Notes: a model not told the origin generated them from the sequence alone. Counted from the whole stretch's first letter, positions 1,152 through 38,896 are shown. The stretch: 51,032 nucleotides of DNA, filler included, from an uncultured virus (IMG/VR IMGVR_UViG_2061766007_000659) (2 parts of one record of this genome joined end to end with filler, not necessarily neighbours in it); one strand, 5' to 3'. Numbers and translations are program-made.

Positions 1152-1189
1152 ATTAAAATTAGTCATTTTGAACTTTATATTATAGGTGT

Positions 1190-3321: not shown

Positions 3322-3396
3322 TATAAGAAGGGNNNNNNNNNNNNNNNNNNNNNNNNNNNNNNNNNNNNNNNNNNNNNNNNNNNNNNNNNNNTGAAA

Positions 3397-3792
3397 TTGT
3401 TTCAGAATATGAACAACGTTGTCAAGGTCGAGGATTTGAGAGACGATGAATTCTATCAGAAAAAGGATATTGATTTCGCTGTCTATACAACCAATAACAA
3501 GAAAGCGAATGTCGAGGTCAAGACAGACTATCTTGCTGAAAAGACCGGAAACATCGTATATGAGAGAGTATCAAACGCCCAGTATTCAAGTACAGGATGT
3601 TTTGATAAGACCGAAGCTGATTATATCTTCTATGTCATAATGGGAAANNNNNNNNNNNNNNNNNNNNNNNNNNNNNNNNNNAATAACGGAAATTTCAGAT
3701 ATTGCAAGATGGGAGATAACGCAGAGGGATTCGTTATTCCCATTCAAAGTCTTTATGATAATGGTATAATAAGAAAAGAGTACGAAATTTAA
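3397..3792 (+). CDS. PD-(D/E)XK-like nuclease inserted between the two polA parts (candidate homing endonuclease); start hidden in gap
   Basis: DIDF...VEVKTD...TGNIVYE...ADYIFY motif pattern, located between polA motifs A and B. Confidence 0.55.
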   Translation: MFQNMNNVVKVEDLRDDEFYQKKDIDFAVYTTNNKKANVEVKTDYLAEKTGNIVYERVSNAQYSSTGCFDKTEADYIFYVIMGXXXXXXXXXXXXNNGNFRYCKMGDNAEGFVIPIQSLYDNGIIRKEYEI

Positions 3793-3793
3793 T

Positions 3794-4714
3794 ATGGCTT
3801 NNNNNNNNNNNNNNNNNNNNNNNAGAAACAGAAGGGATACGGAGATTACAAGAAGTTCAGACAGATTGCCAAGGCACAGAACTTCTCGTTGATTTTCGGT
3901 GGTTCAGAGAGCGTATTCAGCCAGTACTCCCTTGAAATCTACTGGACACTTAATGATGTCAATCAGTATCTTGAGGATAATGATTGCGGTGTTGAACTTG
4001 AAGAAGTACAGAAGAAATATAAAAACTTTACAGAGGAGCACCAAAGATTCGTAGCTGCAGCATCAAGAATGAGAAAGGGATTTTTCAAAGGATATCCTGG
4101 ACTTCTTGTAAGATGTGACAGAGAAGTGAAATATGCCGCTGAACATGGATATTGCCGTTCCGTATTCGGTGGAACAAGAAATCTTATTGAATTGTTCCTC
4201 AGAGGTGCTTACGATGATAAGTATGAATCCGGAACATTGAAGAACCTTGAGAATATCTCAAAGAACTACTTAGCTCAGCAGTTGGAAGCCTGTATCCGTG
4301 GAAGGGCCATGAGGGAGATTGCTGAGTGGTTGATAAACAATGGATACAAGTCAAGGGTATGGAATGAGATTCACGATAGTATTGACTACTATCTTTACAA
4401 NNNNNNNNNNNNNNNNNNNNNNNNNNNNNNAGATTCCGGAGTTGAAGGAGTTCTGGGTGCCCCTCCCTGCCGATTGTAACATAAGTGACCATAGTAAAGG
4501 TCAGTACTACAAGGAAGAGAACAGCGCTGAATCATTCGGTATTCCCTGGGGTGATAACCTTGAATTCCAAGACCCAGACCCGTTCGGAGTAGAATTAGCT
4601 CCAGAATTTGAGACGGAATACTTTGATAACAGAGCTAAATGGTGGGCAAGTAAGGGATTACCTGACCCATTGGCAAGAAAGATTTACAGATACAGGAAGG
4701 AAAAGGGCGTCTGA
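3794..4714 (+). CDS. polA: DNA polymerase I (family A), C-terminal part: motifs B and C
   Basis: ATG at 3794, then a gap, then KQKGYGDYKKFRQIAKAQNFSLIFG (motif B), NYLAQ, WNEIHDSID (motif C). It continues after the 4401-4430 gap as IPELKEFWVPLPAD...KGV*. Confidence 0.85.
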
Positions 4715-4839: not shown

Positions 4840-6429
4840 GACTTTGAGGAAGCCGCTAGCGGTATCCCCCAGCAGTTCCGTGAATCACAGAGAAGAATAC
4901 CAGATTACTCCTTGATGAATTATGAACCTATTGTGGGAAAACACCCCCATGAAGATTTCCAGCGTATCTCCATAAGCAAGGGAATAAACATATCCTCACA
5001 CGCTTTCTTCTTCGGTCAGGGAACAGGTAAATCATATATTGCTTCAGCAATAATCGCCCATAGGGTCTACAAGTATCATGATTGCAACAAGGTCTTATTT
5101 GTAACCACAAATATCGGTGTGAGAAACCTTTATCATGAGTTGTTCAAGTTCATAAAGGACTTGAATCCAGATAAAGTCAAGATTGCAGACAAGAATTACA
5201 GGAATCCCTTTGATGACCCCAACACAGATATCGTCATCACAAGTTATAATTCATTCAGACTTGTATGCAATTATTACAAGAAACAGAAAGGAATCACGGC
5301 AACCTCCCCAAGAAAGCCATTCTTACCTTTGGAGAAATGGTTCAACGGAAGGGGAATGTTGATTCTTGATGAATCCCATTGTGTGGCCAATCCCCAAAGT
5401 CAGCAAGGTTATCTGATGGCCTTACATTCTGGACTATTCACATACAAGTATCTTTTCTCCGGTACACCTGCTGACAATATAGAGAAATTATATAACCAAT
5501 ACAAGATAATGGACCCTTGGTTGGTCTATAACCTCTCATTCACACAATGGAAGGACAAATTGGCTTTTCTCGGTGACAGATTCAGTATGTTCTCAATAAG
5601 GGAATGGAAGAAAGACGAGGTTGAGAAACAGAATCAGAGATTCCTCAAGTCCTATGGTGAATACTTCAAGACAGAGGACTTGATTGAGCTTCCGGACTTC
5701 AATGAGAAGAAGATATATATAGAAATGACTCCTTCCCATAGGAGAATCTATGAATCCTTCATCATGGACGATTTGAAGAAGAACTCTCAGACCGTAAGGG
5801 ACATTGTGAACAGATTCCCCTACATGATGTTAGCAACAGATGACCCTACATTGTTGAAGAAACATGAGGAAAAATTCGATTATGACTTGAACCTCATGCT
5901 TGAGAAATTCAACACAAAGGATTTGGAGAAATACAATGCCCTTGAGGATATCATGAATGACCTTGAGGATAAGGAAAAGGCTATCGTATGGGTCATTCAC
6001 CCCTCCACTGCCAAGAGAATCTGTGAGAGATTCAGTAAATACAAGCCAATCTGTATCATCGGTGAGACCCCTCAGGATGACAGATTCAAGATGGTCGAGG
6101 ATTTCAAGAAAGGTGATTCCAGAATGCTTGTGGCGGTCATACAGACCTTGGCAACTTCAGTGACCATACTTGAAGCCCATGTATCAGTCTATTTTGAAAG
6201 AGGGTTCAACTTCACTGATATATCACAGAGCCTTAACAGAAACTACCGATTGGGTCAGGATAAGGTAATCACAAGATATATGCTGATTTATGATAAATCA
6301 CTGGATTGCCTTGTGGACAAGAACCTTGACAGCAAGGGTACTCTGGTAAAAGGACTTTGTAGTAGGGACTTCCTCACACAAGCTGAATGGCAAAAAATAT
6401 TCAATTGCAGTGAAAACACTCAAATTTAG
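4840..6429 (+). CDS. SNF2-family (SF2) helicase; true start lies in the upstream gap
   Basis: Walker A GQGTGKS, motif II LILDESH, motif III SGTP, motif VI QSLNRNYRLGQ. The frame is open upstream of 4912 back to the gap. Confidence 0.85.
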   Translation, partial: DFEEAASGIPQQFRESQRRIPDYSLMNYEPIVGKHPHEDFQRISISKGINISSHAFFFGQGTGKSYIASAIIAHRVYKYHDCNKVLFVTTNIGVRNLYHELFKFIKDLNPDKVKIADKNYRNPFDDPNTDIVITSYNSFRLVCNYYKKQKGITATSPRKPFLPLEKWFNGRGMLILDESHCVANPQSQQGYLMALHSGLFTYKYLFSGTPADNIEKLYNQYKIMDPWLVYNLSFTQWKDKLAFLGDRFSMFSIREWKKDEVEKQNQRFLKSYGEYFKTEDLIELPDFNEKKIYIEMTPSHRRIYESFIMDDLKKNSQTVRDIVNRFPYMMLATDDPTLLKKHEEKFDYDLNLMLEKFNTKDLEKYNALEDIMNDLEDKEKAIVWVIHPSTAKRICERFSKYKPICIIGETPQDDRFKMVEDFKKGDSRMLVAVIQTLATSVTILEAHVSVYFERGFNFTDISQSLNRNYRLGQDKVITRYMLIYDKSLDCLVDKNLDSKGTLVKGLCSRDFLTQAEWQKIFNCSENTQI

Positions 6430-6479
6430 ACTTATATTATATATGTGAAATTAATTTCCAATAAGGAGAAATATTATAA

Positions 6480-7360
6480 ATGAATAGTGAACAGATTGAG
6501 ATTACAATGGGTGTATCTCTTATTCTCAGGGATATCATAAATGAGATTCTTTATGCAAGAAAGACCACTTCTGATGGAAAGGAGTATATTGTTGACAGAG
6601 AACTCCCTTTCAGACTCAGATATAGATTGAATAAAAACAGACTTCTCTTTGAGANNNNNNNNNNNNAAGGATTTTTGCCCTTGCCAAGTATGGTGAAGCC
6701 ACCCCTGATGGAAAGAATGTAGTTATCAATGACCCTAAGAAGCAGGAACTTTTCAAGCAGGAAATCTCCAGTATCATTGATACTCCTGTAACACATTCCA
6801 TCGTGAGACTGGAGCCTGAGGATATTGAACTTGTATCTGATACAGACATCAATATTGCCCCAGATGCAATGGCTCTGTTCATCGGTTATATGACCAATGA
6901 CCCCGAGCTTCAGAAAGATTTGGATACCAAGATTAACATAAGGCTCAATACTCCTAAGACAGAAGATGCCCCCAAGGTAGAAGAGACTCCTGTTGTTGAG
7001 GAAACTCCAGTTGTTGAAGAAACCAAAGTAGAGGAGAAGGCAGAAGAATCACCTGCTCCTGTCAAGAAAACCACAACAAAGAAATCCACTACAACCAAGA
7101 AGTCCACAACCACAAAGACCCAGAAGAAGCTTCAGAACATCGCTGAGGGAAAGCCTGTCCTTGATGGTGTAGAGGAAGTCAAGACAGAGGAAACTCCTAA
7201 GGAGACTCCTAAGAAAACCACAACCAAGAAGTCCACAACCTCAAAGAAAACCACAACAAAGAAGGTGGAGGCCCCTGAAACAGCAGAGGAAGCCCCCAAG
7301 AAAACCACAACAAGAAAGCCTAGAACCAAAAAGGTGACAGAGGAGACAGTCAATGGCTGA
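6480..7360 (+). CDS. Hypothetical protein with DUF1617-like N-terminus and Lys/Thr-rich low-complexity tail (joined across gap)
   Basis: ELPFRLRYRLNKNRLLFE resembles the next gene. RBS AAGGAG. The tail has KKTTTKKSTT repeats. Confidence 0.6.
7063..7330 (+). repeat. Coding repeats (KKTTTKKSTT)n
   Basis: AAGAAAACCACAAC(A/C)AAGAA... recurs near 7063, 7211, 7245 and 7298. Confidence 0.75.
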
Positions 7361-11167: not shown

Positions 11168-11784
11168 ATGTCCAAGAAAAATAAGATTCATGTAGGTGAG
11201 ATACTGAAAAAGCACAATGCTCTTTTCAATTATATCAAAGACCCCTATGGATTCCGTATAGGTGTGGTTGTGATGATGGCAGGNNNNNNNNNNNNNNNNN
11301 NNNNNNNNNNNNNNNNNNNNNNNNNNNNNNNNNNNNNNNNNNNNNNNNNNNNNNNNNNNNNNNNNNNNNNNNNNNNNNNNNNNNNNNNNAGACCTGTGAG
11401 GTATTCAACAAGCATAGAGACCCTGATGAGCAGACAGACCCCAGCATGCTGGATATTTACAATGATGTCGAGACCTTAAGAAATCTGAAAGTCGGAAGTC
11501 CTGAGACAAGAGGATTCCATAATGATTCCATTACAAGTAAGGGAAAGGCTGACCTTGTTTCCCTTGCTATCAAGAGGGCCAATATGGACAGAGACAATTA
11601 TTTCGCCTGTAAGTCAGAGAACCCCAATGACAGATGTGACCAGAGTGAGGTCGAGTGGGATTTGAACTGGATTCCGATTAACAGACCTGATGACAGTCTA
11701 ATCGTGAAAAGTCAGATTCTTACACAAACTATAAAGAGAGCTGTAAGAGAAGCTGAATACAGGGCTTGGAGATACTTCAAGTAA
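11168..11784 (+). CDS. Hypothetical protein (two ORF pieces joined across gap)
   Basis: MSKKNKIH...GFRIGVVVMMA-gap-...MLDIYNDVETL...AWRYFK*. Confidence 0.5.
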
Positions 11785-11796
11785 AGGAGAGAACAA

Positions 11797-12461
11797 TGGA
11801 CTGGAGAAAGAACGCCAGCAACGGATATGAGGCATACGCTTATATACAGAAAAGACCTATCAGTTTCCAGGTGACCCTTGACGGAAGGTATCTTGGATGG
11901 ATTTCCAACTATGACCCTAATACAAGAAGCTCAAGGCCTGAACTCTATATCTCAGGCAAATGCTCCACAGACGAGGAGGCCATGTCCTACATCAACGGAC
12001 TCGTTGAGAAGCTGAATAATCCTGCTCTGGTCAAGAAGTCTGAGGAATCCTCTCCTCATACAGAGGAAGATGTTTATGTCGAGAAGCTGACAAAGGATTT
12101 GGATAACTTTGAGGATGCACCCGTTGAGGAGATTCCAGTTGAGGAGCCTATCGTGGAGACCGTCACAGAGGAAAATTCTGACCCACAGGACAACTTAACG
12201 GATGCTGAGGAAACTGATATAGTTGAGGAGGAAGAATCAGCAGGTGACCCGATTTCCTTTATTGTAGATGGAAATACACTTACCATCCGCTCCACAAGAG
12301 AGGGTGTTCTCAAATACACCACAAACGGAAGGGATGTCAATGTGTCCTCCAAGATTTACAGGGAGCCTTTCTCAATTGAAGGTGTGGAGATTGTCAAAGT
12401 CAGGCTTTATGATGCTGATAAAAATGTCCTTTCAGAGAATGAATATAAACCTTTCAACTAA
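11797..12461 (+). CDS. Hypothetical protein with acidic linker and C-terminal Fn3-like (chitobiase/CHB_HEX_C-type) domain
   Basis: RBS AAGGAG before MDWRK; C-terminal LKYTTNGRD...IYREPFSI...VKVRLY. Confidence 0.6.
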
Positions 12462-15182: not shown

Positions 15183-16248
15183 ATGCACGATATCAGAGTA
15201 ATTGAAAAATCAGATAAGTATGGTTATGAGGTAGCCATTGACGGACAGAACAAGTATTTCAAGAGCAAGGAATACAATTATATCTTTGACATGAAAACCG
15301 GAAGGATGATTTCATGGGGAAGAACCTTTGAGGATGACCCTGTTATCAGTCCGATAAACAATATTCTTGACCTTGAAATCACCACCATCTGTAAGCACGG
15401 ATGCCCCTTCTGCTATAAGTCCAACACCAGAAACGGTGTGAATATGTCCTTTGACACATTCAAGAAAATCATTGATGTACAGAGCAGAGGACTCACACAG
15501 GTCGCTCTTGGTGCTGACTATGACCTTACCGCCAACCCTGATATCTGGAAGATGATGCAGTATGCAAGGGAAAACCTCATCATTCCCAACATTACTCTCG
15601 GATATTGTGATGATGATACCGCTGACAAGCTGGCCAAGTATTGTGGTGCTGTCGCTGTATCAAGATATGAGGACAAGGATGCCTGCTATGATACCATCAA
15701 GAGATTGACTGACAGAGGTATGGAGCAGGTCAATATGCATTACATGATTTCCATGGAGACATATGACAGATGCCTTGAAACCCTCAATGATATCGTGACC
15801 GACCCAAGACTCTCAAAACTCAATGCAATCGTTCTCCTCGGACTCAAGACCAAGGGTAGAGGAATCGGATTCCATACTCTCACACAGGAGAAGTTCGATG
15901 TCCTCTGTGATTTCGCCAAGAAGCATAACATTGGTATCGGATTTGATTCATGTAACTCCCTCAAGGCTCTGAGGTCATTCGGTCAGCATATCCAGGGAAG
16001 TGTTCTTGATTGTGAGGCCGCAGGTCTCCAGAGTTCCTACATCAATGTCAAGGGTGAGTACTATCCTTGTTCCTTCGCTGAGGGCTGTGACACTCCTGTG
16101 GATTGGACTACCGGACTCAATGTTCTTGAGTGCAATAATACAGAGGAGTTCCTTGAAAAGATTTGGAGAAATCCCAAGACCCTTCTNNNNNNNNNNNTGT
16201 GAGCACAACGAGTGTCACTGCAGAACCTGCCCATTCTATGAGGTATGA
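15183..16248 (+). CDS. Radical SAM protein with SPASM/twitch-type C-terminus
   Basis: LEITTICKHGCPFCY (CxxxCxxC), DCEAAGLQSSYINVKGEYYPCSF, and terminal CRTCPFY after the gap. Confidence 0.85.
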
Positions 16249-21925: not shown

Positions 21926-22735
21926 ATGACTACGAAAGAATATATTGAGATATATCATAAGTGTCCTGAAAAAGACCATCAATATGAGGGCTGGGAAAAA
22001 GACCTTGAAGCCATGAGGAACTTCAACAAGGAGCTTATCAGAAAGTATCCATGGCTTGAACCCCGCAATAACTGGTCAGGTAAGAAGATATCTGTATGTG
22101 CAGGACATGATGGGGAAGAAGGGTTCTGGCCTGGTGACCCCAAATTACACCCTGAATACAATTATGAGTACACTGTTCTGGACGATATGCCAGAGGGGTG
22201 GAGAATTGCCTTCGGTGATAAGATGTGTGAGGAGATAGACCAGGAACTCAGAAGATTCGATTATCAGGACAAGTATGAGATAACTGAGATAAAGGAAAAG
22301 TATGGAAGTCTCAGATGGTATGATAATGGAACCCCTTACAAGCTGTCTGAGAAGCCTGCCAAAGAGTTTGAGATACATAGATTTGATGTTCTTGAAAGAG
22401 ACTGGGATTCAGATAAATATGCACTTAGGTCACTCTGGTCTGACCATTACATAAACCCATTTGACAATAACGTGGACATGACCCAAGAGGAGATAGATAA
22501 GTACAACAAGGATGCAATCCATCACTATGCACTCTATGAGATAATTGATGAGTGTAAGGTGCAGGATATCATAGACAAATATACTGAGCTCTCAAAAAAT
22601 ATCTGTATAAATTGCGGAAAGCCCGCCAAGTATATGTCAAAGGGATGGATAAGTCCTTATTGTGAGAATTGCGCCAAAGAAATGATGAAAGGAAGTAAAT
22701 ATAATCTGAAGGATTCCTTCACACCTATAGACTGA
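21926..22735 (+). CDS. Conserved phage hypothetical protein (KEKYGSLRWY motif, C-terminal CxxC...CxxC)
   Basis: EGW...IKEKYGSLRWY...CINCG...CENC. Confidence 0.65.
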   Translation: MTTKEYIEIYHKCPEKDHQYEGWEKDLEAMRNFNKELIRKYPWLEPRNNWSGKKISVCAGHDGEEGFWPGDPKLHPEYNYEYTVLDDMPEGWRIAFGDKMCEEIDQELRRFDYQDKYEITEIKEKYGSLRWYDNGTPYKLSEKPAKEFEIHRFDVLERDWDSDKYALRSLWSDHYINPFDNNVDMTQEEIDKYNKDAIHHYALYEIIDECKVQDIIDKYTELSKNICINCGKPAKYMSKGWISPYCENCAKEMMKGSKYNLKDSFTPID

Positions 22736-23116
22736 TTTCAATGAAATGCAGGAATGAAAAAGAGAGTATTGCATTGCTGAGTGCCCTTAATCAGATACTC
22801 AGTGATGATTATCATAGGAGAACTTCGTGATGAACGGATTAATTTGGATATTTTTCATAACATTGGCTATTTCAGCCTTCTGTGCCGCAATGGCTGCGGT
22901 TTTCTACCTTGTGAAGAAAGCCTTCTTCCTGGTATGGGGANNNNNNNNNNNNNNNNNNNNNNNNNNNNNNNNNNNNNNNNNNNNNNNNNNNNNNNNNNNN
23001 NNNNNNNNNNNNNNNNNNNNNNNNNNNNNNNNNNNNNNNNNNNNNNNNNNNNNNNNNNNNNNNNNNNNNNNNNNNNNNNNNNNNNNNNNNNNNNNNNNNN
23101 NNNNNNNNNNNNNNNN

Positions 23117-23142
23117 ACCCTCCGTTTCGGAGGGTTTTTTTT
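23117..23142. terminator. Terminator between convergent transcription units
   Basis: ACCCTCCG-TTT-CGGAGGGT followed by a T-run; lies just beyond the stop of the minus-strand operon. Confidence 0.7.
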
Positions 23143-23162
23143 ATATCTTCCATCATAAGATT

Positions 23163-24230
23163 TTATGAAAGGATTATATTGGCCCCAGAAGGTCTGGTCC
23201 AACTTGCATCATTCTTACCAGTATTGGCACAAGTACTTGTGCATGAAGTCTGACAAAGGGAACTGCAATTCTCTGAACAACTTTCCTCACAGAATACAGT
23301 ACACTCCTCAGTACAGGAAGATTTTGTACATGAAGTTCCACAGGTACTCTGTCCACAGTGATTGTTACAATCATTTGCGCAAGTCTGGTCTTTACAGGCA
23401 GCGGAACAAGTTTCTTTACAACCATCATTGCACTCATCTTTACATCCTGTCTGACAAGTTGATGACCCGCAATTAGCAGCACAAGCTCCTTCAGAGCAAA
23501 TGGCACTGCAAGCTCCATAGCAATGTGAAGTGCACCCCTCACTTGTACAGTCATTTGAACAATTGCTTCCGCAAGCCTTAGTGCAACTGTTATAACAATC
23601 TCCTTTGCATCCATCCTTACAGCTAGATTCACAAGTTGTTCCGCACATGACAGTACATCCGCTTGTGCAATGAGCAGTACATCCTGTTAAGCAGGTGGAA
23701 GTGCAGTCTGAGGTACATCCATAGATATTACACATAGATGAACAGACATTAACACATTCAGAAGAGCAAACTCCACTGCATCCTCCAGAACAGGAAGTAG
23801 AATCCCCACAAGAATTACTGCAAGTACTATCATAGCAGGTAGATTTACACCCTGATTCACAAGCCCCGTAGCAATCCCTGGAACAAGCAGAATAACAACT
23901 ACTAGTTGTTCCACAATTTGTGCTACAGGTGCTGTTATAGCAACTTCCATAGCAAGCATTTGTGCATCCCTTACAAGTATCAGACGCACAAGTACTACTG
24001 CAATTGCTTTTACATCCTCCACCACCAGTGCAACTTGTACCGCAAGTTTGATAGCACCCTGTTCCACAGCCTCCAGTACATGCACTTGATGCACAAGTTG
24101 CATCACAATTCCCTAAGCAAGCACCACTACATCCGATACAAAGTCCTGTGCATGCTGATGATTTACAAGTTTGTGCACGGCATCCGCTAGTACAAGAAGT
24201 ACAGCTATTAGCACCAGTACAAGAAGCCAT
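23163..24230 (-). CDS. Cys-rich CxxxC-repeat protein A (355 aa, about 79 Cys), putative radical SAM substrate
   Basis: Cys every 4-5 residues from residue 4 to about 334; AAGGAG RBS; in an operon with a SPASM radical SAM gene. Confidence 0.85.
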   Translation of the reverse strand: MASCTGANSCTSCTSGCRAQTCKSSACTGLCIGCSGACLGNCDATCASSACTGGCGTGCYQTCGTSCTGGGGCKSNCSSTCASDTCKGCTNACYGSCYNSTCSTNCGTTSSCYSACSRDCYGACESGCKSTCYDSTCSNSCGDSTSCSGGCSGVCSSECVNVCSSMCNIYGCTSDCTSTCLTGCTAHCTSGCTVMCGTTCESSCKDGCKGDCYNSCTKACGSNCSNDCTSEGCTSHCYGACSAICSEGACAANCGSSTCQTGCKDECNDGCKETCSAACKDQTCANDCNNHCGQSTCGTSCTKSSCTEECTVFCEESCSENCSSLCQTSCTSTCANTGKNDASWTRPSGANIILS

Positions 24231-24245
24231 ATTTATTTTCTCCTT

Positions 24246-24467
24246 TTAAAGGGAATTAACAAGAAATTGGAATTTACATACATCTGAAATGTTCCTATAT
24301 ATAAATTCAGAAAAGTCATTTATCATACTTAAATCCAATTTATCAATGTCCAGACAGGATAATGCATTTACAAGACTTGTAATTGCATTAGACTTGGCTT
24401 TGGATATCGAGGAATTTAGAGTTTCTATATTATTTAATTTTGTTATTTTGTCTTCTGTCATATTCAT
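24246..24467 (-). CDS. Small hypothetical protein of the Cys-repeat operon
   Basis: 73-aa ORF overlapping the radical SAM stop and filling the space before protein A. Confidence 0.55.
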   Translation of the reverse strand: MNMTEDKITKLNNIETLNSSISKAKSNAITSLVNALSCLDIDKLDLSMINDFSEFIYRNISDVCKFQFLVNSL

Positions 24468-25620
24468 CCCAATATATTTTTGTCCATTTACATTGTAATT
24501 TCACAATCTCACATATATAAGTAGTTCTTCTGAACTCTCCGAATTCAGCATAGCACCCTCCTATACAGTAAGGACAAGCGGGCTCATAGATGCAATCAAG
24601 ACACTTGGGGTCTTTTGTACAGTTGGCACGGATAGCTCCATCAGTAACTTTCTTGAAGTTTTCCTTATGATTGAATCCATCCCATACATTACCTACACAC
24701 ATTGCACCTTCACCACCATTCTGTGTGTGAGGAAGCCATCTGAAACAAGGATAAATATTTCCCTGGATACTCAATGTAGGCATACAACCGGAACCGCATC
24801 TTCCATCTGTATGGAATTTACTCTTATTTTCTATATATTGAGGGTCATTCTCATCTATATAGAAGTTGTTTCTATCCAGCATAGACCAATACATTTCATC
24901 ACTATGGTCAAGGACATATTCCACACACTTCTCAAGCTGTTTGTCAAGAAGCTTATAATCCTCCTCGGTACAACCAGTATCCTCCATAATGAAGTTCTGA
25001 TGAATCCAGTAAAGACCCAATTCCTCATGCATCCATTTCAAGGAATCATAAAGATAAGGAATAGTATTTCTGGCACAAGTAGCTTTGGTCTGTCGGGATT
25101 CTCTTGGAAACCATTTTCTGAACCAATCCCAGTTCTTCATGATTTCAGGCATTGATGGACTACCATCAGGAAATATCCTGTTTGCATCATGAATTTCTGG
25201 ACATCCATCTATGGAGACACCAGGACAAAGATTATCATGCCATTTCTCACAGAAGGCTCTTACCTCAGGCTTGCTGAAAAGAGTACCATTTGTGGATATG
25301 GAAGCTCTCCACCCATTTTTAGGCTTCTCTTTAAGCATACCCCATTTGGTATTGNNNNNNNNNNNNNCATGAAGGAATCTCCCCCTATGAAGTCGATTAT
25401 TCTTCCGTCATAAACCCACTCCATATCTGTACCTCTGACTCCAACTGGGTCAGGGTCATCCAAAATAAGGTCTATGAATCTNNNNNNNNNNNNNNNNNNN
25501 NNNNNNNNNNTTCACAGGTTTCTTGTTAATCTCATAGCAGTACTTGCATCTGAGATTGCAGTCTTCTGTGGTATTTATTGTGCAATTAAGTCCTTCAAAA
25601 GAAGGGATATCATCTATCAT
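24430..25620 (-). CDS. Radical SAM/SPASM peptide maturase, CXXX-repeat-target type (joined across two gaps)
   Basis: Manual N-terminus MIDDIPSFEGLNCTINTTEDCNLRCKYCYE; IDFIGGDSF; SISTNGTL; VSIDG; SPASM CGSG...IYPCFRW...CLDC...CPYCIGGC...IC. Confidence 0.9.
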
Positions 25621-25647
25621 TTATACTTCCTTCTAAATATTATTTTA

Positions 25648-27441
25648 TTATAAATAAGGATGCTCATCCATATAAGCTTCGGCATCTGACTTTTTAAAAA
25701 ATGAACCTATATATTCATACTTTACTGGACTAGACCCTATTACTTTATATTTTACTTGATATACATTTTCCTCTGAATCATAATATATTCCTACTGCTTT
25801 TAAAGTATATTCTGTCTGAGGTTCACCTGTAGCTTGATGACTACAAGAATCACCACACTGAAGGTCGCAAACGCTAGCACATTCCTCACTACAACTCGTT
25901 TTACAAGCTGCTGAGCAGTTATTGGAGCAACTGGTAGCTGAATAACAACCTTCCTTGCATGCAGAAGAGCAATCCTGTCCACAACCTGTCTGACAAGTTG
26001 TCTGACAACCATTTTTACAAGTACTGGATGAGCAAGTAAGACTACAATTGCTGCCTTCACATTTATTACTCTTACAAGTGTATGTGCAATCATTTGTACA
26101 TCCAGTGGATACGCAAGAACTCAAGCATCTTCCTGTACAATCTGAGCCGCAATCTGAGGAGCATACCTCAGTACATGATGAACTGGCACAAGTGGCAGCA
26201 CAACTACTGGTACAATTACTTCCAGACTGGCATGCAGCATCGCATCCTTTTGAACAACTGCCTCCGCAGTCATTGGAAGTACAGTGTCCACCACATGAGC
26301 CATCCTCACAATAAGACTTGCAAGTTGTACCACATGAACCACTGCTACAGGTACCATCACAAGCAGTGGAACAACCCATTCCACAAGTTGATGTGCAATT
26401 TCCACCGCAACTGGTATGTGCTCCACAAGAGGTATAGCAATCAGAAGAACATTCCTTACCACAACTTGACCCGCAGCTTCCCTGACAAGTGGATGAAAGA
26501 CAGTTAGAATCACAGGATTCATCGCAACTTCCTTCACAGGATTTTGTGCACCCTTGCCCAGTACACTCACTTCCACAGGTTCCTGTGAAACAAGAGGTAT
26601 CACATTTGTTGTCACATTTTTTTCCACAAGTATCTGCACAATATCCGGAACAGTTTGTCGAGCATCTTGCAGATGAACATACTACACCGCAACTTCCAGT
26701 ACAACTGTTTCTACAAGTTTCATCCCTACAGGTATTGTCACAGTATACATTGCACCCACTCTTACATCCTCCTGAGGTACAAGTATCCTTGCATCCTCCG
26801 CATGCAGATTTACAATTTGTAGTACAGACACTGTTTCCGCAATCACCCTTACAGGAAGATGATGCGCAGGTGCTGGAACAATCATCCCAGCAACCTCCTC
26901 CGCAGCTGGCTCCACAAGTTTCATCAGAGCAACTGGAAGCTGTGCAGCTACCATAGCAACCCTCTTCGCATCGGGCTTTATTCCTGATATCATTGGTCAG
27001 AAGCCTGATATCATTAAGATAGTCTTTGAGAATATATGAACCAGAGGATGCGTCAGATGAACCAGGAAATGAAGAAGTATCACTATATTTTACTTTTTGA
27101 CTATTGATGACTTCATTAAGACCTACAAATCCGGATGGGAGAGCAGTCTTTCTGAATTCCTCCATAATTCTGTTATACTGGGTGTCATCCAATTCAAGAC
27201 CCTTTAAGTCAGCATCATCAGAATCTGTAATTCCGATATCATGAAGCATCTGCTTGAAGCTTCTGGGACTCCTATATGTACTTACAGTTCTATAGGGGTC
27301 AGCTTCCCATCCTCTGACATCTTTTCTAGCAGACAACAAGTCTCCCCAAGCCTTAGCAAGTGAACCTAAATCAGAGATATTTGAGATTTTTATTTCAAGG
27401 TCATCCTCAATGAAATTGTATTTATCAGGACTGCTCGCCAT
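25648..27441 (-). CDS. Cys-rich CxxxC-repeat protein B (597 aa, about 89 Cys) with Cys-free N- and C-terminal domains
   Basis: About 156-aa Cys-free N-terminus, about 380-aa Cys repeat, about 60-aa Cys-free C-terminus. Confidence 0.85.
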   Translation of the reverse strand: MASSPDKYNFIEDDLEIKISNISDLGSLAKAWGDLLSARKDVRGWEADPYRTVSTYRSPRSFKQMLHDIGITDSDDADLKGLELDDTQYNRIMEEFRKTALPSGFVGLNEVINSQKVKYSDTSSFPGSSDASSGSYILKDYLNDIRLLTNDIRNKARCEEGCYGSCTASSCSDETCGASCGGGCWDDCSSTCASSSCKGDCGNSVCTTNCKSACGGCKDTCTSGGCKSGCNVYCDNTCRDETCRNSCTGSCGVVCSSARCSTNCSGYCADTCGKKCDNKCDTSCFTGTCGSECTGQGCTKSCEGSCDESCDSNCLSSTCQGSCGSSCGKECSSDCYTSCGAHTSCGGNCTSTCGMGCSTACDGTCSSGSCGTTCKSYCEDGSCGGHCTSNDCGGSCSKGCDAACQSGSNCTSSCAATCASSSCTEVCSSDCGSDCTGRCLSSCVSTGCTNDCTYTCKSNKCEGSNCSLTCSSSTCKNGCQTTCQTGCGQDCSSACKEGCYSATSCSNNCSAACKTSCSEECASVCDLQCGDSCSHQATGEPQTEYTLKAVGIYYDSEENVYQVKYKVIGSSPVKYEYIGSFFKKSDAEAYMDEHPYL

Positions 27442-27709
27442 CGTCTAAAAGTATCCTTCCGTCATCAAAAGCGAAGGCATAAGGAACACCATATTTCTTG
27501 GAGATTTCACATCTGAGTTTATGTTCCTGAACCTTGGCTTCTTTCTGTTTTTTCATAAGGCCTTCATAATATTCCTCGACTCTCTTGATGTCCATATCTA
27601 CCGGAAGTGGTCTTACGATATAATCATGAACGGTGTTAAGAGAAGTGATGACATAAATGAAGTCCAGCTTCTCACTTTCAGTTAATTGAACATTTGTCTC
27701 TTTAAGCAT
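27425..27709 (-). CDS. Small accessory protein resembling the CXXX-repeat peptide modification system protein (TIGR04116-like)
   Basis: 94 aa. The VQLTESEK...YYEGL...ISKKYG...FDDGRILL pattern is recalled from that family; GGAG RBS; first gene of the operon. Confidence 0.55.
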   Translation of the reverse strand: MLKETNVQLTESEKLDFIYVITSLNTVHDYIVRPLPVDMDIKRVEEYYEGLMKKQKEAKVQEHKLRCEISKKYGVPYAFAFDDGRILLDDGEQS

Positions 27710-27798
27710 TTTTTAATTCTCCATATATATTTATTGANNNNNNNNNNNNNNNNNNNNNNNNNNNNNNNNNNNNNNNNNNNNNNNNNNGAATCTAAATT

Positions 27799-28103
27799 AT
27801 GTTTAAGACAAAGAAAGATGCAACGGCTAATAATCTTGAAAGGCTTATCGAACTTTACGCAGATTACAGACAGATGCAGTATGATATCTTCAAGCAGTAC
27901 AACCTGCTTCTGGAAGACCCCAAGTTTGATACTCTTTACATGGACATCACCCCTCTCANNNNNNNNNNGATGATTTGAATGGAACTGATGAGCACTCCAG
28001 CACCACAGATATCATCAAGGAGTTCAAGAAGCTCAAGGAAACCTATTTCAACCTTCTGGCCTCGTACAATAATCAAGGTAAGGACATTGACGCCCTTAAC
28101 TGA
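27799..28103 (+). CDS. Hypothetical protein (joined across gap)
   Basis: MFKTKKDATANNLERLIELYADY...KDIDALN* by manual translation. Confidence 0.5.
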
Positions 28104-28119
28104 TTTTTTCAAATGCCTA

Positions 28120-28892: not shown

Positions 28893-29894
28893 ATGAATCC
28901 TAGAACACTGAGAAACCTTATTATTGGTGCAGTTATCGTAGTCCTTGTTATCGTACTCGGATTTTCGTCATTTACGGTTATTTCACCCACAGAGAGAGGA
29001 GTGAAAGTCACAATGGGAAAGGCGGGAGATACAGTTCTGAATCCAGGTATGCAGATTAAGGCTCCATTCTTCCAGACCGTCAGAACATATGACCTAAGCC
29101 CAAAAGCCTTGAATATGTCATTCAGTATGGGACAGGACGCAGCAGTTACCTCTGATATGCAGTCTGTTGCCTGTGATTTGGTTGCTTATTGGACATACGA
29201 TGAAACTAGGATTCTTGATATTGTCAATGGTTATGCCGATGCCACAATCAAGAGTCTTGTCAGAGACAACACACTTGGTGCTATCAAAGAGGTAATTGGT
29301 AAATACTCTATATATGATATTGTAGAGAAGCAGGAAGAGGTCACAGAGCAGGTCAGAGCGTCACTTGTCAACAGGCTCTCCCAGTATCCTGTGGTTATCA
29401 GTTCACTTACAATCAACAACTGGGATTGGAGTTCTGAGTTCGACGCACAGATTGCCAATACCATGAAGATGGCTCAGCAGGTCAAGGTAGCTCAGCAGGA
29501 ACTTGAGGTTACTAAACAGCAGGCTCAGAAACAGGTCGCAGAAGCCAACGCCGCTAAGGAGAAGGCAGAGATTGAGGCTCAGATGAGGGTCGCAGTCGCA
29601 GCACAGGAGGCCCTCGCCAAAGAGAAGGAAGCCGAAGGTAAGGCTAATGCAGCTAAGGTTACCGCAGACGCTGAAGCTTATAAGGCAAAGGTAGAGGCCG
29701 ATGCAAAGGCTTATGCAAGAGAGGTTGAAGGAAAGGCAGAAGCTGAATATTACAAGAACCTTTCAAGTCAGGCTGAGATTATCGAACTTCTCAGAACCCT
29801 TGACATTGAGTCCACAAGAGCTGGTAAGTGGAATGGAGTTGAGGTATCAACCTATCTGCCCCTTACAGCCAATGGAGTTCTGGTCAACCTCTGA
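28893..29894 (+). CDS. SPFH/prohibitin (band 7) family protein
   Basis: N-terminal TM, ISPTERGVKVTMGK..LNPG, AVTSDMQ, Ala/Glu-rich coiled coil. Confidence 0.9.
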   Translation: MNPRTLRNLIIGAVIVVLVIVLGFSSFTVISPTERGVKVTMGKAGDTVLNPGMQIKAPFFQTVRTYDLSPKALNMSFSMGQDAAVTSDMQSVACDLVAYWTYDETRILDIVNGYADATIKSLVRDNTLGAIKEVIGKYSIYDIVEKQEEVTEQVRASLVNRLSQYPVVISSLTINNWDWSSEFDAQIANTMKMAQQVKVAQQELEVTKQQAQKQVAEANAAKEKAEIEAQMRVAVAAQEALAKEKEAEGKANAAKVTADAEAYKAKVEADAKAYAREVEGKAEAEYYKNLSSQAEIIELLRTLDIESTRAGKWNGVEVSTYLPLTANGVLVNL

Positions 29895-30471: not shown

Positions 30472-30795
30472 ATGGAGACTAAAGCAACAACAATTGATAT
30501 TTTGAAACATATATTTGATACGGTATGTCTGTATCCAGATGTTGAATCCTGTGAGAACATTGATGTCTTTACAAAAGGACACTACTTCGGTCCAGGATTC
30601 GTCATGTCATTTGACTTCAAGGATGGTGATGATTTCGTAGAGAGCTCCATTATCTTTGATAAGGATAAGAACTATGTCGGAACGATGTCTTGGATTAACA
30701 AGAGGTCAAATGACGGATGGTTCAATGATGTAAATCCGAAATGGATGGATGATGAAGTAATTTGGGCCAACATAAAGAGGTTTGAAGAAAAATGA
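30472..30795 (+). CDS. Hypothetical protein
   Basis: 107-aa ORF, ATGA-coupled to rtcB. Confidence 0.6.
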   Translation: METKATTIDILKHIFDTVCLYPDVESCENIDVFTKGHYFGPGFVMSFDFKDGDDFVESSIIFDKDKNYVGTMSWINKRSNDGWFNDVNPKWMDDEVIWANIKRFEEK

Positions 30796-32023
30796 TAGAA
30801 ATTAGGGGACAGTACAATTCAGCAATCATATATCAGTCAGAGATTGATGATGCAACCCGTGACCAGGTTCAGACAATTGTGAATCAGCCCTTTGTCGAGG
30901 GTGAGACAATCAGAATCATGCCTGATTGCCACGCTGGAGCAGGGTGTGTCATTGGAACAACTATGACAATCAACAACGGAAGAGTCTGCCCCAATCTTGT
31001 GGGAGTAGATATCGGTTGTGGAATGTTACTGGTTGAACTGAAAGGAATCAGAAAAGAAGACATAGACTTCGATGATTTTGACAAGTTCATATCCACTCAC
31101 ATACCTGTTGGTAAAGAGGTCTACGAAGCCCGTCAGGTGCATTTTCCGGAAATACTCAATCTCAAATGTTACAGAGAAATGAAAGATGCAGGAAGATTCG
31201 AAAGAGCCATAGGTACTCTTGGTGGTGGAAATCACTTTATGGAACTTGATGAGGGTTCTGATGGTAGAATCTATTTTGTTGTCCATACTGGCTCAAGAAA
31301 CATGGGTAAGCAGGTCGCTGATTACTACCAGGATTTGGCTGATGGAATCTGCAACAGAGGACTTGACACATATTTCATAGAGAAGGCAAATCTCATTGAG
31401 ACCTATAAGGCTGAGGGAAGAAAGTCAGAGATTCAGAACGCTCTGAAAGAACTCCAGAAGAGGTATAAGGAGAATACTGAGAAAGTACCGAAAGACCTCG
31501 CATGGCTTGAGGGTCAGCACCTTGAGGATTATCTTTATGACATGAGAATCTGTCAGTGGTACGCTTCTCTCAACAGAAAGACAATCTGTGAGAAGATTGT
31601 CAAGTACTTCAATCTGGACTGGTTCAATCTGTACAAGTGTGAGACTATACACAACTACATAGACTTTGAACAGAAGATTCTGAGAAAGGGTTCTATTGAC
31701 TGTTCTTTCGGTAAGACAGTTCTGATTCCCATAAACATGAGGGATGGGTCCATACTTGCAGAAGGTAAGGGAAACAAGGATTACAATTTCTCGGGACCTC
31801 ATGGAGCTGGAAGGCTTCTGTCGAGAAATGCAGCCAAAGAGACCATATCTTTGGATGATTTCAAGAAGTCAATGGACGGAATCTATACTTCATGTGTATC
31901 AGAGGATACTCTTGATGNNNNNNNNNNNNNNNNNNNNNNNAGTCAGTTCTTCCTTGGATAGAGGAGACAGCAGATGTTGTAGATATAATCAAGCCCATCT
32001 GGAATTATAAGGCAACTGAGTGA
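30792..32023 (+). CDS. rtcB: RtcB-family RNA ligase
   Basis: IMPDCHAG, VGVDIGCG, GTLGGGNHF, HTGSR, HNY, RKG, PHGAGR; C-terminus after the gap ...IKPIWNYKATE*. Confidence 0.95.
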
Positions 32024-33947: not shown

Positions 33948-35157
33948 ATGAAGCAGATTATCACACATCTTACAGACACAGATTTTTACAAGTTCAGTAT
34001 GGGACAGGCAATTTTCCATCAGTTCAACTCTGATGAGACCACTTGGACCTTCAAGTGCAGGAACAAGGATGTCAAGTTCACTCCTGAAATGGTTGAGGAG
34101 ATTACAAGACAGATAAAGATGTACTGTGACCTCAGATTCACAGAAGAGGAGCTGAGATATCTGTCAACCATCAAGTGGTTGAAAAAGGACTACATTGACT
34201 TCCTCAGATTCTGGCATCCAAGATTTGAGGAGTTTGACATCAGTACATATGGAGACTGTGGATTGTCAATCGAGACAAAGGGAACATGGTTGAACACCTC
34301 CATGTATGAGATTCCCACTCTGGCGATTGTCAATGAGGTCTATTTCACAATGAAATACCACATCAACTCTCTTGAGGACCAGTTGATAAACGGTACTGCA
34401 TATAAGATTAATGGTCTCAGACTCAGAGGACATGAGTTCCACACTCTTTATAACATCCCCTTCTCTGAGTTCGGAACAAGAAGAAGACTCAGCAAGTCTT
34501 CTCAGGAGAGGATGCTGACAATGTTCAGAGATGCAAGCATTCCTGGATTTGTCGGAACATCCAATGTCTACTTTGCCATGAAGTTGGGACTCAAGCCAGT
34601 AGGAACAATGGCTCATNNNNNNNNNNNNNNNNNNNNNNNNNNNNNNACACCATGAATATAATCCAGCTTACTCCAACAAGTTCGCCCTTGATTCTTGGGT
34701 CAAGGAGTATGGAATCCTCAATGGAATCGCTCTTACGGATACAATCACAACTGACTGCTTCCTCAAGGATTTCAGATTGACATTTGCCACTCTGTTCAGT
34801 GGAGTCAGACATGACAGCGGAGACCCTATGATTTGGGGAGACAAGATGATTGAGCACTACAAATCCCTTGGAATCGACCCCAAGACAAAGACACTTCTGT
34901 TCTCTGACAGTCTTGATTTCCATAGGGCAGTGGATATTGTGAAGTACTTTGATGGACGGGCAAAAGTCGCCTTCGGAATCGGAACTTGGCTGTCAAATGA
35001 CTGTGGAATCACTCCTCTCAACATCGTCATGAAGGTCACTGAGGCCAACGGTCAGCCCGTGGCCAAGATTTCGGATGCAAGTGGTAAGGGAATGTGCAAG
35101 GATGAAGCCTATGTGGACTACCTCACAAGGGCCATCAACTGGAGAATGACCCACTGA
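33948..35157 (+). CDS. pncB: Nicotinate phosphoribosyltransferase (joined across gap)
   Basis: [66 protein letters not shown]. Confidence 0.95.
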
Positions 35158-35374: not shown

Positions 35375-35562
35375 TGGACAAGAGAGTTAATCAAGTCCTT
35401 AAAGACAAATGTAAATGGGTTTCAGCTTTCAGTAAGAAGAACCTTCTGTTCAAGGAAGTTGTCAAAGATTACCCTATGCCATTGCCGAAAGAGAATATAC
35501 CCATTATTAAAATGGAATATAAAANNNNNNNNNNNNNNNNNNNNNNNNNNNNNNNNNNNNNN

Positions 35563-36417
35563 TTGAAATAAGATACTAAGCTGCTTGGAACATATATGGC
35601 TTCTATTGAATTTACATTTGTAAATGCATTGGCATTACTGACACTGGGACACCTTGTTACATTTCTTAAATCTATGACTTTAAGTGAAGTCATATTACTG
35701 AAAGCATAGTTACCTACATTTGTTAAAGCACCTTGGATTCTAAGGTGGGTTACTCCCTGCATATACATAAAGGAATAGGCACCAATGGAAGTTATGCCAG
35801 CATCCACCACAATTTCTTTGACAGCGGTGTTTGGAGAAGATGTCTTACTGTTGAAGTAACTCTTACTGCTTGTTCCTGAAATTGTTTTACTTCCACCGAT
35901 TCCAACATATCCTGATGTAGGTAATGTACTTGTGGTTATAGGTGTCAAATCAAAATCAGCACCATGATAAGGATAGGTTCTGCCATCAGGACCATAGCTT
36001 GAGAATGGATAGGTTATTGTATTGTCATTCTCATCCTTCCAACCAGTTATATACAGACTGTTATATGAGCTGTCAGTAGGATATTCAATATCAATAAAAT
36101 GATTTATTGTATAGAGAGTAGCATAAACTGTAACTGTGTAGTTCATGGTGACAGTGGTATTATAGGCAGTGTAACTNNNNNNNNNNTGCCTGACTCATAG
36201 AACCCGATATAATCTGATATGTGAATTTAGGACTATCATAGTCCATTATGTCAGCAAGTCCGTTATTATAGTGAGCAGATAAAATCATGCCAGCCAAGTC
36301 TAAGGATTGACCTACTGAGAACTCTGTTACATCAGGCTCAGATACCATGCTTAGAGATACTGGATAGATACTTGCTCCACCACCTGATGTCTGATATTGG
36401 ATTGCATTTATAATCAT
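35563..36417 (-). CDS. Ig-like (Big_3-type) plus BspA/TpLRR leucine-rich-repeat protein; probably one gene across the 36177-36186 gap, 3' end in gap
   Basis: SLSMVSEPDVTEFSVGQSLDLAGMILSAHYNNG (Big_3-like); GITSIGAYSF, LTNVGNYAFSNMTSLKVI, NAF...IYVPSSLVSY (LRR_5 repeats and cap). Confidence 0.7.
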
Positions 36418-37462: not shown

Positions 37463-38896
37463 ATGAATGAGTATATAAAGAAGGTTCTTCCAGAGATTGT
37501 GGAATCTATGGATAAGGAGCTGGAAGACCAAAGAAGTAATCTTAAAATGATTGCTTCAGAGAATTATTGTAGTCCTGCAGTAAGAGAAGCCATGTCTTCT
37601 ATTTTTACTGATAAGTATTCCGAGGGATATCCTTACCACAGATATTATAGTGGTTGTGATAATGTGGATAAGGTAGAGAAACTTGCTCAGGATTTGGCTT
37701 GTGAGCTTTTCGGTGCTGATTATGCTAATGTTCAGCCCCATAGTGGTTCAGATGCTAATCTTATTGCCTATTGGGCAGTCCTTGATGCTTGTGTCCTTAC
37801 TCCTGGGTTTGAGGGTGTAAAGATGGATTTCCAGTCAGATAAGGATAGGGGAATCAATGTAGATGTTCCTAAGTCTTATAGTGATTTGACTGGAGTTGTA
37901 TGGGGCTATCTCAGAAGAAATTGTCATAATAAGAGACTCCTTTCCATGGATTATTATTCTGGAAGTCACCTTACCCATGGATACAGACAAAATATATCCT
38001 CACAGATTTTTGATTGTTATTACTACAAGGTAGGTGACAACGGACTTCTTGATTATGATGCTATTGAGAATCAGGCCATAGAAGTCAAGCCTTTGATTCT
38101 TCTGGCAGGTTATTCAGCTTATCCGAGGAAAATCAATTTCCGAAGATTCAGAGAGATTGCTGACAAGTGTGGAGCTGTTCTTATGGTGGATATGGCTCAC
38201 TTTGCGGGTCTTGTAGCAGGTCATGTCTTTGAGGGTGACTATGACCCTGTTAAGTGGGCTGACATTGTGACTTCTACTACTCATAAGACTTTGAGGGGTC
38301 CAAGAGGTGGTCTGATTCTCTGTAAGGAGTGGCTCAAGGATTCCGTCAATAAGGGTTGTCCTCTGGTGATGGGTGGTCCTTTACAGAATATGATTGCTGC
38401 CAAGGCCATCTGTTTCAAGGAAGATCTATCCACGGAATTTGAATCTTATGCTCATCAGATTGTCTCCAATTCACGAGCTCTTGCTGAATCCCTTAAAGAC
38501 AATGGAATCAAGATTCTGACCGATGGAACAGATAATCACATGGTTCTTGTGGATTTGACTCCTCTTGGACTTACAGGCAGACAAGCAGAGCAAGCCCTCA
38601 GAGATTGCGGAATCACTTGTAATAGGAATACAATTCCCAATGACAAGAATGGTCCCTGGTATACAAGTGGATTGAGACTGGGAACTCCTGCTCTCACTAC
38701 TCTTGGAATGAAGGAGAATGACATGGCTCAGATTGGTCTGTGTATTTCCGAGGTTCTTAAGAGCCTTATTGTAGATTCCAAGGTAAGTAAGACCAAGTAT
38801 TCAATTCCAAAGGATGTAATAGACAGGGTTAGGGGAGTTGTCAAGAGTCTGCTGAGNNNNNNNNNNNNNNNNNACTTTGATGTTTCATTTTTGTAA
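37463..38896 (+). CDS. glyA: Serine hydroxymethyltransferase, long-insert spirochaete-type
   Basis: LKMIASENY, DKYSEGYP..RYY.GC, VQPHSG, HLTHG, DMAHFAGLVAG, TTHKTLRGPRGG (PLP Lys), GTDNH, SGLRLGTPALTT. Confidence 0.97.
   Translation: MNEYIKKVLPEIVESMDKELEDQRSNLKMIASENYCSPAVREAMSSIFTDKYSEGYPYHRYYSGCDNVDKVEKLAQDLACELFGADYANVQPHSGSDANLIAYWAVLDACVLTPGFEGVKMDFQSDKDRGINVDVPKSYSDLTGVVWGYLRRNCHNKRLLSMDYYSGSHLTHGYRQNISSQIFDCYYYKVGDNGLLDYDAIENQAIEVKPLILLAGYSAYPRKINFRRFREIADKCGAVLMVDMAHFAGLVAGHVFEGDYDPVKWADIVTSTTHKTLRGPRGGLILCKEWLKDSVNKGCPLVMGGPLQNMIAAKAICFKEDLSTEFESYAHQIVSNSRALAESLKDNGIKILTDGTDNHMVLVDLTPLGLTGRQAEQALRDCGITCNRNTIPNDKNGPWYTSGLRLGTPALTTLGMKENDMAQIGLCISEVLKSLIVDSKVSKTKYSIPKDVIDRVRGVVKSLLXXXXXXXFDVSFL

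Follow-up and report, generated by a model that had tools for sequence, protein, structure and literature searches.

The window analysed here is a 51,032-nucleotide stretch of DNA from an uncultured virus (IMG/VR IMGVR_UViG_2061766007_000659). Between positions 23163 and 27709 it carries a cassette of five open reading frames (ORFs) on the minus strand, opposing their plus-strand neighbours. In order of transcription these encode a 94-aa helper protein, the cysteine-rich protein B, a radical S-adenosylmethionine (SAM)/SPASM enzyme, a 73-aa protein, and a second cysteine-rich protein, A. On balance we favour the interpretation that the cassette is a self-contained protein-maturation unit in which, by analogy with characterised enzymes, many thioether rings would be installed in A and B, with a structural or surface part of the virion as the likeliest role of the product. 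All five ORFs lie where a first-pass annotation had placed them, and little DNA separates them: neighbouring genes overlap twice, by 17 and 38 nt, and are otherwise divided by two short gaps.

The cassette encodes an intact radical SAM/SPASM maturase

The enzyme gene (24430-25620, minus strand) reads in the window as three pieces in two frames, an appearance caused by two runs of N lying inside it. Contigs covering this region have an insertion at one N run and a deletion at the other, which yields a single frame of 401 codons, the length of an 87%-identical relative (P0001). Other relatives are likewise uninterrupted proteins of 390-420 aa, and the consensus of 30 of them runs unbroken through CNLRCKYC, DFIGGDS and GWRASISSNGTLF. 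The enzyme gene is whole.

The identification of its product (about 401 aa) as a SPASM-type radical SAM maturase, made in the first-pass annotation, holds: the motifs are present (CNLRCKYC, matching CX3CX2C; GGDSFM; and a Cys-rich C-terminus), and among curated families the product matches TIGR04115 best, the 'radical SAM peptide maturase, CXXX-repeat target family'. This family was the top NCBIfam match in all seven enzymes scanned, with 137.5 bits for the 302-aa piece in the window, 198.2 bits for full-length P0001 and 200.9-229.6 bits for five other clade members; residues 12-383 of P0001 align to positions 3-354 of the 359 in the model. An enzyme from a faecal phage (locus L001) reaches 300.6 bits. 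PapB (NF047865) is second-best, at 87.2 bits for the window piece, 126 bits for P0001 (72 below TIGR04115) and 87-146 bits across the scans, followed by CcpM, QhpD-type and SCIFF maturases; the sactipeptide maturase RumMC scores only 39 bits. A profile of the enzyme matches the SCIFF maturase CteB (5WGG/5WHY), the closest solved structure, with E = 4.9e-28 over CteB residues 101-442, a span that takes in the cysteines of both the radical SAM and the SPASM parts. Across 30 relatives, the C-terminal 302 residues share nine invariant Cys, which align with cysteines of CteB; the SPASM model TIGR04085 gives the window piece 18.6 bits, under its cut-off of 27.

The annotation had also placed the system with TIGR04115, the target repeat TIGR04114 and TIGR04116 as the accessory model. 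Hidden Markov model (HMM) searches gave a different picture, as the window piece of the enzyme reaches 137 bits and P0001 reaches 198 bits against a cut-off of 350, and neither A, B nor the 94-aa protein has a hit at E up to 10. The enzyme clade thus reads as a diverged sister group of TIGR04115 that is not a member by the curators' criterion.

Relatives of the enzyme are encoded beside Cys-ladder proteins

A collection of 5.8 billion proteins contains 439 relatives of the enzyme at E <= 1e-10, and 100 related loci were examined, of which 9 were viral, 75 came from metagenomes and 16 from genomes (individual loci are given L numbers). A ladder was defined as a same-strand ORF with at least 8 Cys just upstream of the enzyme, and was counted over the 74 loci with at least 300 nt of upstream sequence. 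Ladders were found in 63 of these, or 25 of 33 clusters at 90% identity, bearing out the expectation that Cys-repeat ORFs accompany homologues of the maturase; helper, ladder and enzyme genes also recur in that order among relatives. The enzyme is nearly always encoded beside a Cys-ladder protein.

Ladders in relatives contain from 10 to 94 Cys. The two giant Cys proteins that had drawn attention to this cassette are both real, but they are not unique. The ladder period is 4 in most relatives, 5 in L011/L080 (35 of 45 gaps) and alternates between 3 and 4 in the L004 group, and these variants are interleaved on the enzyme tree. A Cys-every-fifth substrate, as in the L011/L080 ladder, is also known for CefB (NF038107); as the L011 enzyme is TIGR04115-like (217.6 bits) and not CefB-like (47.7 bits), the period appears to have changed within this clade.

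This distribution does not establish the proposal that a phage has repurposed a bacterial system; members of the enzyme clade sit mostly on viral or prophage DNA. Of its 16 genomic loci (L088-L103), 12 bear titles of Spirochaetota (Treponema, Sphaerochaeta, Pleomorphochaeta and others); several, being on contigs of 99-286 kb, are likely prophages, which offers a hint of host range only.

Eleven loci lack an upstream ladder (L009, L067, L068, L070, L071, L075, L077, L034, L048, L084 and L098). Two of these, L009 and L075, represent a single contig. A monophyletic ladder-less branch, whose enzymes are C-extended or carry an intein, comprises L009, L067, L069 and L071; L070 falls in one 90%-identity cluster with L069. 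L077 has no ladder and is absent from the tree; L034 has its helper downstream, followed by the contig end; L084 is a 29%-identity hit; and the ladders of L098 lie downstream. Members of the ladder-less branch (100/99 support) adjoin proteins that end in repeated G[IL]TP[YF]D motifs (L067 6152-7621; L075 5598-7109 and 11054-11530), possibly a different substrate. In a 681-aa enzyme relative on this branch (L009 6191-8236, equivalent to L075 7191-9236), an intein-like insert splits the CX3CX2C motif, which reads CNLRCKY, then an insert ending ...VHN, then CYE.

Strong constraint in the ladders of A and B falls on cysteines

Protein B (25648-27441, minus strand; 597 aa) carries 89 Cys in a ladder spanning residues 158-533 (25843-26970), and the leaderless protein A (23163-24230, minus strand; 355 aa) carries 79 Cys between residues 4 and 334, followed by a 21-residue tail. 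With 168 ladder Cys between them, A and B are 22-24% Cys. The 78 gaps between successive Cys in A are of length 4 (58 times), 5 (13), 6 (4) and 3 (3), and the 88 gaps in B are of length 4 (66 times), 5 (18), 6 (3) and 3 (1). In 2000 residue shuffles of each ladder region, the number of gaps of length 4 averaged 8.3 for A and 9.3 for B, with maxima of 20 and 21. The Cys counts of the first-pass annotation are thus exact, and its description of the spacing, mostly CxxxC with some CxxxxC, fits a count of gap 4 far above that of the shuffled ladders.

Spacers are dominated by Ser, Thr and Gly. Tandem Repeats Finder detected no DNA tandem repeat in the ladders, so it is in the protein that the Cys period is maintained. 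When the window is compared with its closest relative, whose enzyme is 87% identical, ladder Cys align at 25 of 29 positions (the count for B) and at 38 of 47, whereas identity among the non-Cys ladder residues is limited to 27 of 82 (again for B) and 29 of 119. Strong constraint in the ladders thus falls on the cysteines only. The target-repeat model TIGR04114 is passed by L001 (21.3 bits, cut-off 20) and failed by the 64-aa peptide of L011 (17.6 bits). Atlas clusters nearest to B are mostly viral and carry PF27846, with a score of 0.86 (below 0.9) that makes them a lead only; a tblastn search of B against 50,697 phage records, with the low-complexity filter on, gave no match.

We also considered whether the ladder ORFs are low-complexity or shadow frames, or the island an assembly chimera. 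In its favour, long alternative ORFs overlap A and B in other frames, and neither protein matches an HMM. We give this explanation almost no credence: Cys positions and the N-terminal domain of B are conserved across at least 20 loci, and there is no DNA repeat. Contigs assembled from an independent sample, X3, bridge both junctions, one joining the left neighbour to A and the enzyme (22511-22940 plus 23117-25039) and another joining B and the helper to the right flank (27229-27737 plus 27794-28105). A chimeric join, raised as a concern in the first-pass annotation, is thereby excluded as far as assemblies can show, and the explanation as a whole is refuted as far as sequence data can do so.

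Protein B has a conserved leader-like domain and a variable C-terminus

Residues 1-157 of B (26971-27441) form a leader-like domain that aligns with the N-terminal domains of ladder proteins from 20 related loci (by alignment and hmmsearch). In these proteins Y119 and D151 never vary, nor do the first three Cys of the ladder, and P126 is almost invariant; this Y...P...D...C block precedes the ladders of the aligned relatives at a fixed distance. The AlphaFold2 model of the domain is helical and of low confidence (pLDDT 63.9), and with so weak a model a fold search of BFVD found nothing; a profile search of the PDB gave no hits. With phmmer, 1.84 billion representatives yielded a single match to an unrelated repeat protein (E = 5.6e-4), and a word-index search with residues 1-160 returned none among proteins of 328-1045 aa.

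Beyond the ladder, B ends in a 64-residue domain free of Cys (25648-25842, stop codon included). In an independent sample, positions 25625-25802, which take in the last 51 or so codons of B and the spacer between B and the enzyme, are replaced by 152 other letters, so the C-terminus appears to be a variable module; the ladder protein of L013 has a different and longer C-terminal domain. The last 68 residues of B have no usable hit and no relatives in the Atlas. We infer for B an anchor-shaft-tip layout.

A common ending, [ST]-[SA]-R-[IL]-G-(G), closes many ladder proteins of related loci 8-13 residues beyond their final Cys, and some stop exactly at ...RIGG (L004/L079, L020, L030, L058, L085, L019, L086, L027, L081, L082 and L044). 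A and B of the window have no clean copy of this ending.

Two small proteins may serve as partners of the enzyme

The helper, encoded by the first gene of the cassette (27425-27709, minus strand), belongs to a family that hmmsearch detects in 42 ORFs lying upstream of ladder genes at related loci, and has 12 close homologues in the 5.8-billion-protein collection. It matches no curated family at E up to 10; nor do the helpers of L003, L010, L004 and L081 at E up to 0.01, or that of L001 at E up to 1. Its AlphaFold2 model (pLDDT 93.8) comprises a strand, two long helices and a hairpin, for which Foldseek finds no match at E up to 0.001 in the PDB or BFVD; the best VIA matches (Z 7.5) are generic helical hairpins. 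Other clades have helpers with CxxCG at the N-terminal end and C-x-H at the C-terminal end, resembling a split zinc ribbon, and both motifs have been lost in the clade of the window.

The 73-aa protein (24246-24467, minus strand) is encoded by a gene that overlaps the end of the enzyme gene by 38 nt and precedes that of A. It is conserved in L012, L013 and L015 (46-68% identity) and matches locally, over 38 residues, proteins of L022-24 and L014 (32-42% identity). In L022-24 its relative follows the enzyme gene and is itself followed by a leaderless ladder gene, the arrangement seen in the window; downstream leaderless ladders are found in L013, L015, L022-24 and L098. By hhalign, the 73-aa family is related neither to the helper nor to the N-terminal domain of B. 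Searches of NCBIfam, Pfam and PHROGs returned nothing for A, B, the 94-aa protein or the 73-aa protein.

The alignment with CteB starts at its residue 101, so the phage enzyme does without the part of about 100 residues that precedes the radical SAM core of CteB, and which we take to be a recognition element (RRE) for peptides that ribosomes make and that are modified after translation (RiPPs). Because the enzyme has no N-terminal recognition domain, we propose that the helper and the N-terminal domain of B deliver B, and that the 73-aa protein delivers A; gene order is what suggests these roles.

Proposed mechanism

Under the favoured interpretation the enzyme would cleave SAM to give a 5'-deoxyadenosyl radical. 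This radical would abstract a hydrogen from a spacer residue, whose carbon would then join a neighbouring ladder Cys, and repetition along the ladder could produce dozens of small thioether rings, up to 89 in B and up to 79 in A. B would be presented to the enzyme by its N-terminal domain together with the helper, and the leaderless A by the 73-aa protein. The product would be a covalently stapled rod, resistant to protease and to redox change. Repeated Cys-to-carbon thioether formation on A and B is the most likely chemistry by analogy with the nearest characterised enzymes. As for the acceptor, either its position floats or the enzyme attacks the backbone alpha-carbon.

The enzyme might instead alter Cys by another radical reaction, such as formylglycine-like oxidation or the formation of C-C or other cross-links. 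SPASM proteins do include anaerobic sulfatase maturases, which match weakly here (E 1e-5 to 1e-7), and the ladders present no conserved acceptor residue. Thioether-forming families match far better (126 bits for PapB and E = 4.9e-28 for CteB, against 30 bits for sulfatase maturases), and we consider such a reaction improbable.

The role of the product

If A and B are stapled, a structural or surface part of the virion is their most likely role given the anchor-shaft-tip layout of B, and the C-terminal part of B is swapped between strains and between relatives, which supports it. This is the weakest step of our interpretation, and we hold it tentatively, as somewhat less likely than not. Neighbouring genes were surveyed in 11 relatives (93 of 160 ORFs); in three of them, L010, L081 and L041, the cassette comes straight after tail or baseplate genes. 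In L019 a tail-fibre-like gene lies 3.6 kb from the cassette, and in L001 the cassette lies among genes judged by eye to be tail-fibre-like. Erwinia phage phiEaH2 (L087, JX316028) encodes two ladder peptides and two radical SAM proteins among genes annotated as 'putative virion structural protein'. L083 has primase and DnaB genes as neighbours, and the neighbours in L027 and L082 are unannotated.

Some further features of these loci are recorded here. The phiEaH2 ladder peptides (3988-4212 and 4386-4616, with 21 and 20 Cys) lie in frames other than those of the annotated small coding sequences, whose deposited translations are Cys-poor and resemble shadow frames. In L003, two glycosyltransferase genes (2375-4422 and 5052-6674) lie upstream of the cassette, and its 540-aa ladder protein has two linkers of 60-70 residues, rich in Ser, Thr, Pro and Gly, between ladder blocks, so this protein may be glycosylated and exposed. 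In L080, on a 235-kb contig, three more radical SAM genes (727-4042) lie upstream of the period-5 ladder cassette.

The principal alternative to a structural role is that A and B are thiol scaffolds that bind metal or Fe-S clusters in the infected cell, as a metal sponge, Fe-S reservoir or redox buffer, while the enzyme modifies a few sites or serves otherwise. Their Cys content, their want of a signal peptide, the metabolic genes nearby and an anoxic gut habitat are all in keeping with this, and the authors who described the Cys-repeat protein CrpA suspect that it binds metal (PMC13692751). Spacing that varies from 3/4 to 4 to 5 within one enzyme clade is, however, ill-suited to a fixed metal site; several relatives lie in tail modules; and the strict pairing with a thioether-type maturase would be left unexplained. 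We regard a scaffold as fairly improbable, if slightly less so than the alternative chemistries above.

Products released as anti-bacterial or anti-host peptides or proteins, RiPP- or bacteriocin-like and no part of the phage, are a further alternative, to which we assign a very low probability. The nearest curated enzyme families are RiPP maturases, and the cassette resembles a movable accessory island, inverted here and differently placed in each relative. Against this, the substrates are 355 and 597 aa long, the enzyme family lies overwhelmingly on phage DNA, A and B lack a signal peptide, and the roughly 8 kb around the cassette contain no recognised peptidase or transporter, in agreement with the first-pass annotation. 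An exported bacteriocin is unlikely.

Several observations weigh against the interpretation of the cassette as a thioether-forming unit for a virion part. Every clade member tested misses the TIGR04115 cut-off (198-230 bits), and A and B match no NCBIfam or Pfam family at E up to 10, in searches from whose Pfam models PF27846 was possibly absent and in which HMMER composition filters may hide hits. No spacer position is conserved in either ladder: among the 58 units of A the third spacer position is Asp or Glu in only 8 and Gly in 10, and among the 66 units of B it is Asp or Glu in only 10 and Gly in 8. The fourth residue after each Cys in such units is itself the next Cys. Neither PapB's Cys-X3-Asp/Glu rule nor the C-X-X-Q/D pattern of CrpA thus fits the ladders. 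The helper model shows no clear RRE fold (a PqqD-like winged helix of three strands and three helices). The monophyletic branch of ladder-less enzymes implies that the family can take other substrates. The neighbours of the cassette in the window are replication and metabolism genes with no tail genes among them, and tail neighbours were likewise not recognised in L003, L024, L080, L083 and L017 of the 11 relatives. Finally, our literature searches found no experimental or descriptive paper on the CXXX-repeat system or on its use by phages.

A bolder form of the proposal, which we think unlikely as a whole, is that phage ladders of 330-380 residues become a continuous chain of up to about 80-90 thioether rings, a laddered rod that would serve as the shaft of a virion appendage and would have no counterpart among known structural proteins. 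Its length and period (3/4, 4 or 5) would be tuned by lineage, and small partners acting in trans would replace a fused leader-recognition domain, so that even a leaderless protein could be processed.

Comparison with known systems

The cassette resembles the CXXX-repeat system of NCBIfam (TIGR04115, with targets TIGR04114, TIGR04117 and PF27846) in that its enzyme scores best against this curated family, in having Cys at every fourth residue and in the adjacency of the target gene. It differs in that the enzyme scores below the cut-off, A and B have no HMM hit and the helper has no curated accessory match; moreover, its ladders have 79-89 Cys in proteins of 355-597 aa, and a second substrate, without a leader, comes with a 73-aa partner of its own. 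The system is catalogued (in NCBIfam, and as PF27846 by Atlas cluster names) but uncharacterised as far as literature searches show. The copy in the window is distinctive for its two very long substrates, the leaderless substrate with its own partner, divergent components that fall below thresholds and a non-tail context.

QhpD, acting on QhpC (TIGR03906; 64-76 bits for clade members), is likewise of the radical SAM/SPASM type and forms Cys cross-links inside a protein subunit, but these links are few and lie in a small subunit of a cellular enzyme. CteB differs from the phage enzyme in having the N-terminal part described above.

PapB, the SPASM maturase of the ranthipeptide freyrasin, is reported to form Cys-Asp/Glu thioethers repeatedly in a repeat substrate (PMC9413430). 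The present enzyme does not reach the cut-off for that family (340), most ladder units have no Asp or Glu at a fixed offset, and the substrates are proteins rather than short peptides. A closer parallel in substrate size is CrpC of Methanococcus voltae, a SPASM radical SAM enzyme described in a 2026 report as forming ranthionine thioethers on CrpA, a 28.8-kDa Cys-repeat protein whose N-terminal domain aids engagement and for which CrpB is possibly a chaperone-like partner (PMC13692751). Both are pairings with a protein-sized Cys-repeat substrate; as described there, CrpC has a fused RRE and a 17-residue C-X-X-Q/D repeat as target, and it is archaeal and cellular, not phage-encoded. CrpC also belongs to another enzyme family, whose model TIGR04463 (cut-off 525) gives 29-42 bits for L003, L010 and L011, and lies outside the 25 best families listed for P0001.

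Enzymatic thioether stapling is known mainly from short antibiotic-like peptides, and CrpC/CrpA, reported in September 2026, is the first experimental case on a protein-sized Cys-repeat substrate. If our interpretation is true, this chemistry would extend to viruses and to substrates with about 80-90 potential cross-links each, and phages would be using RiPP-type enzymes to build their own proteins. So compact a set, with one enzyme, two partners and two substrates that differ in the presence of a leader-like domain, could show how a radical SAM enzyme acts processively along a long repeat, and stapled rods could serve as very stable protein materials.

Genomic setting of the cassette

The window as a whole is phage-like, with PHROG matches to DNA polymerase, helicase, RtcB, an SbcC-like nuclease and methyltransferase/serine hydroxymethyltransferase, in addition to genes for NAPRTase and an SPFH protein. 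We found no close cultured relative of it. Enzyme relatives sit on viral contigs of 158-285 kb, which suggests a jumbo phage, and the sequencing runs containing the stretch are recorded as bovine or other gut metagenomes; the source is probably a large (jumbo) phage of the anoxic gut.

GC skew is negative across 23-28 kb and positive in the flanks. A G+C-rich stem-loop (23117-23135) lies 27 nt beyond the stop codon of A, between convergent genes. The terminator reported there by the first-pass annotation survives in part: the stem-loop exists, but it was called on the plus strand, and its minus-strand tail falls within an N run and is unreadable.

Several auxiliary genes surround the island. 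Downstream on the map are genes for an SPFH/Band 7 protein (28893-29894), RtcB ligase (30792-31961), NAPRTase (33948-34655), a BspA-type leucine-rich repeat protein (35469-36146, minus strand) and serine hydroxymethyltransferase (37463-38896), and at 11766-12461 is a gene for a protein with a chitobiase/hexosaminidase C-terminal Ig-like domain. On the plus strand, positions 15183-16202 encode a further radical SAM protein (Pfam PF04055, phrog_7293; weak NCBIfam match to TIGR04317, 30.6 bits). We considered this gene as a possible part of the cassette and rejected it as separate from the ladder system.

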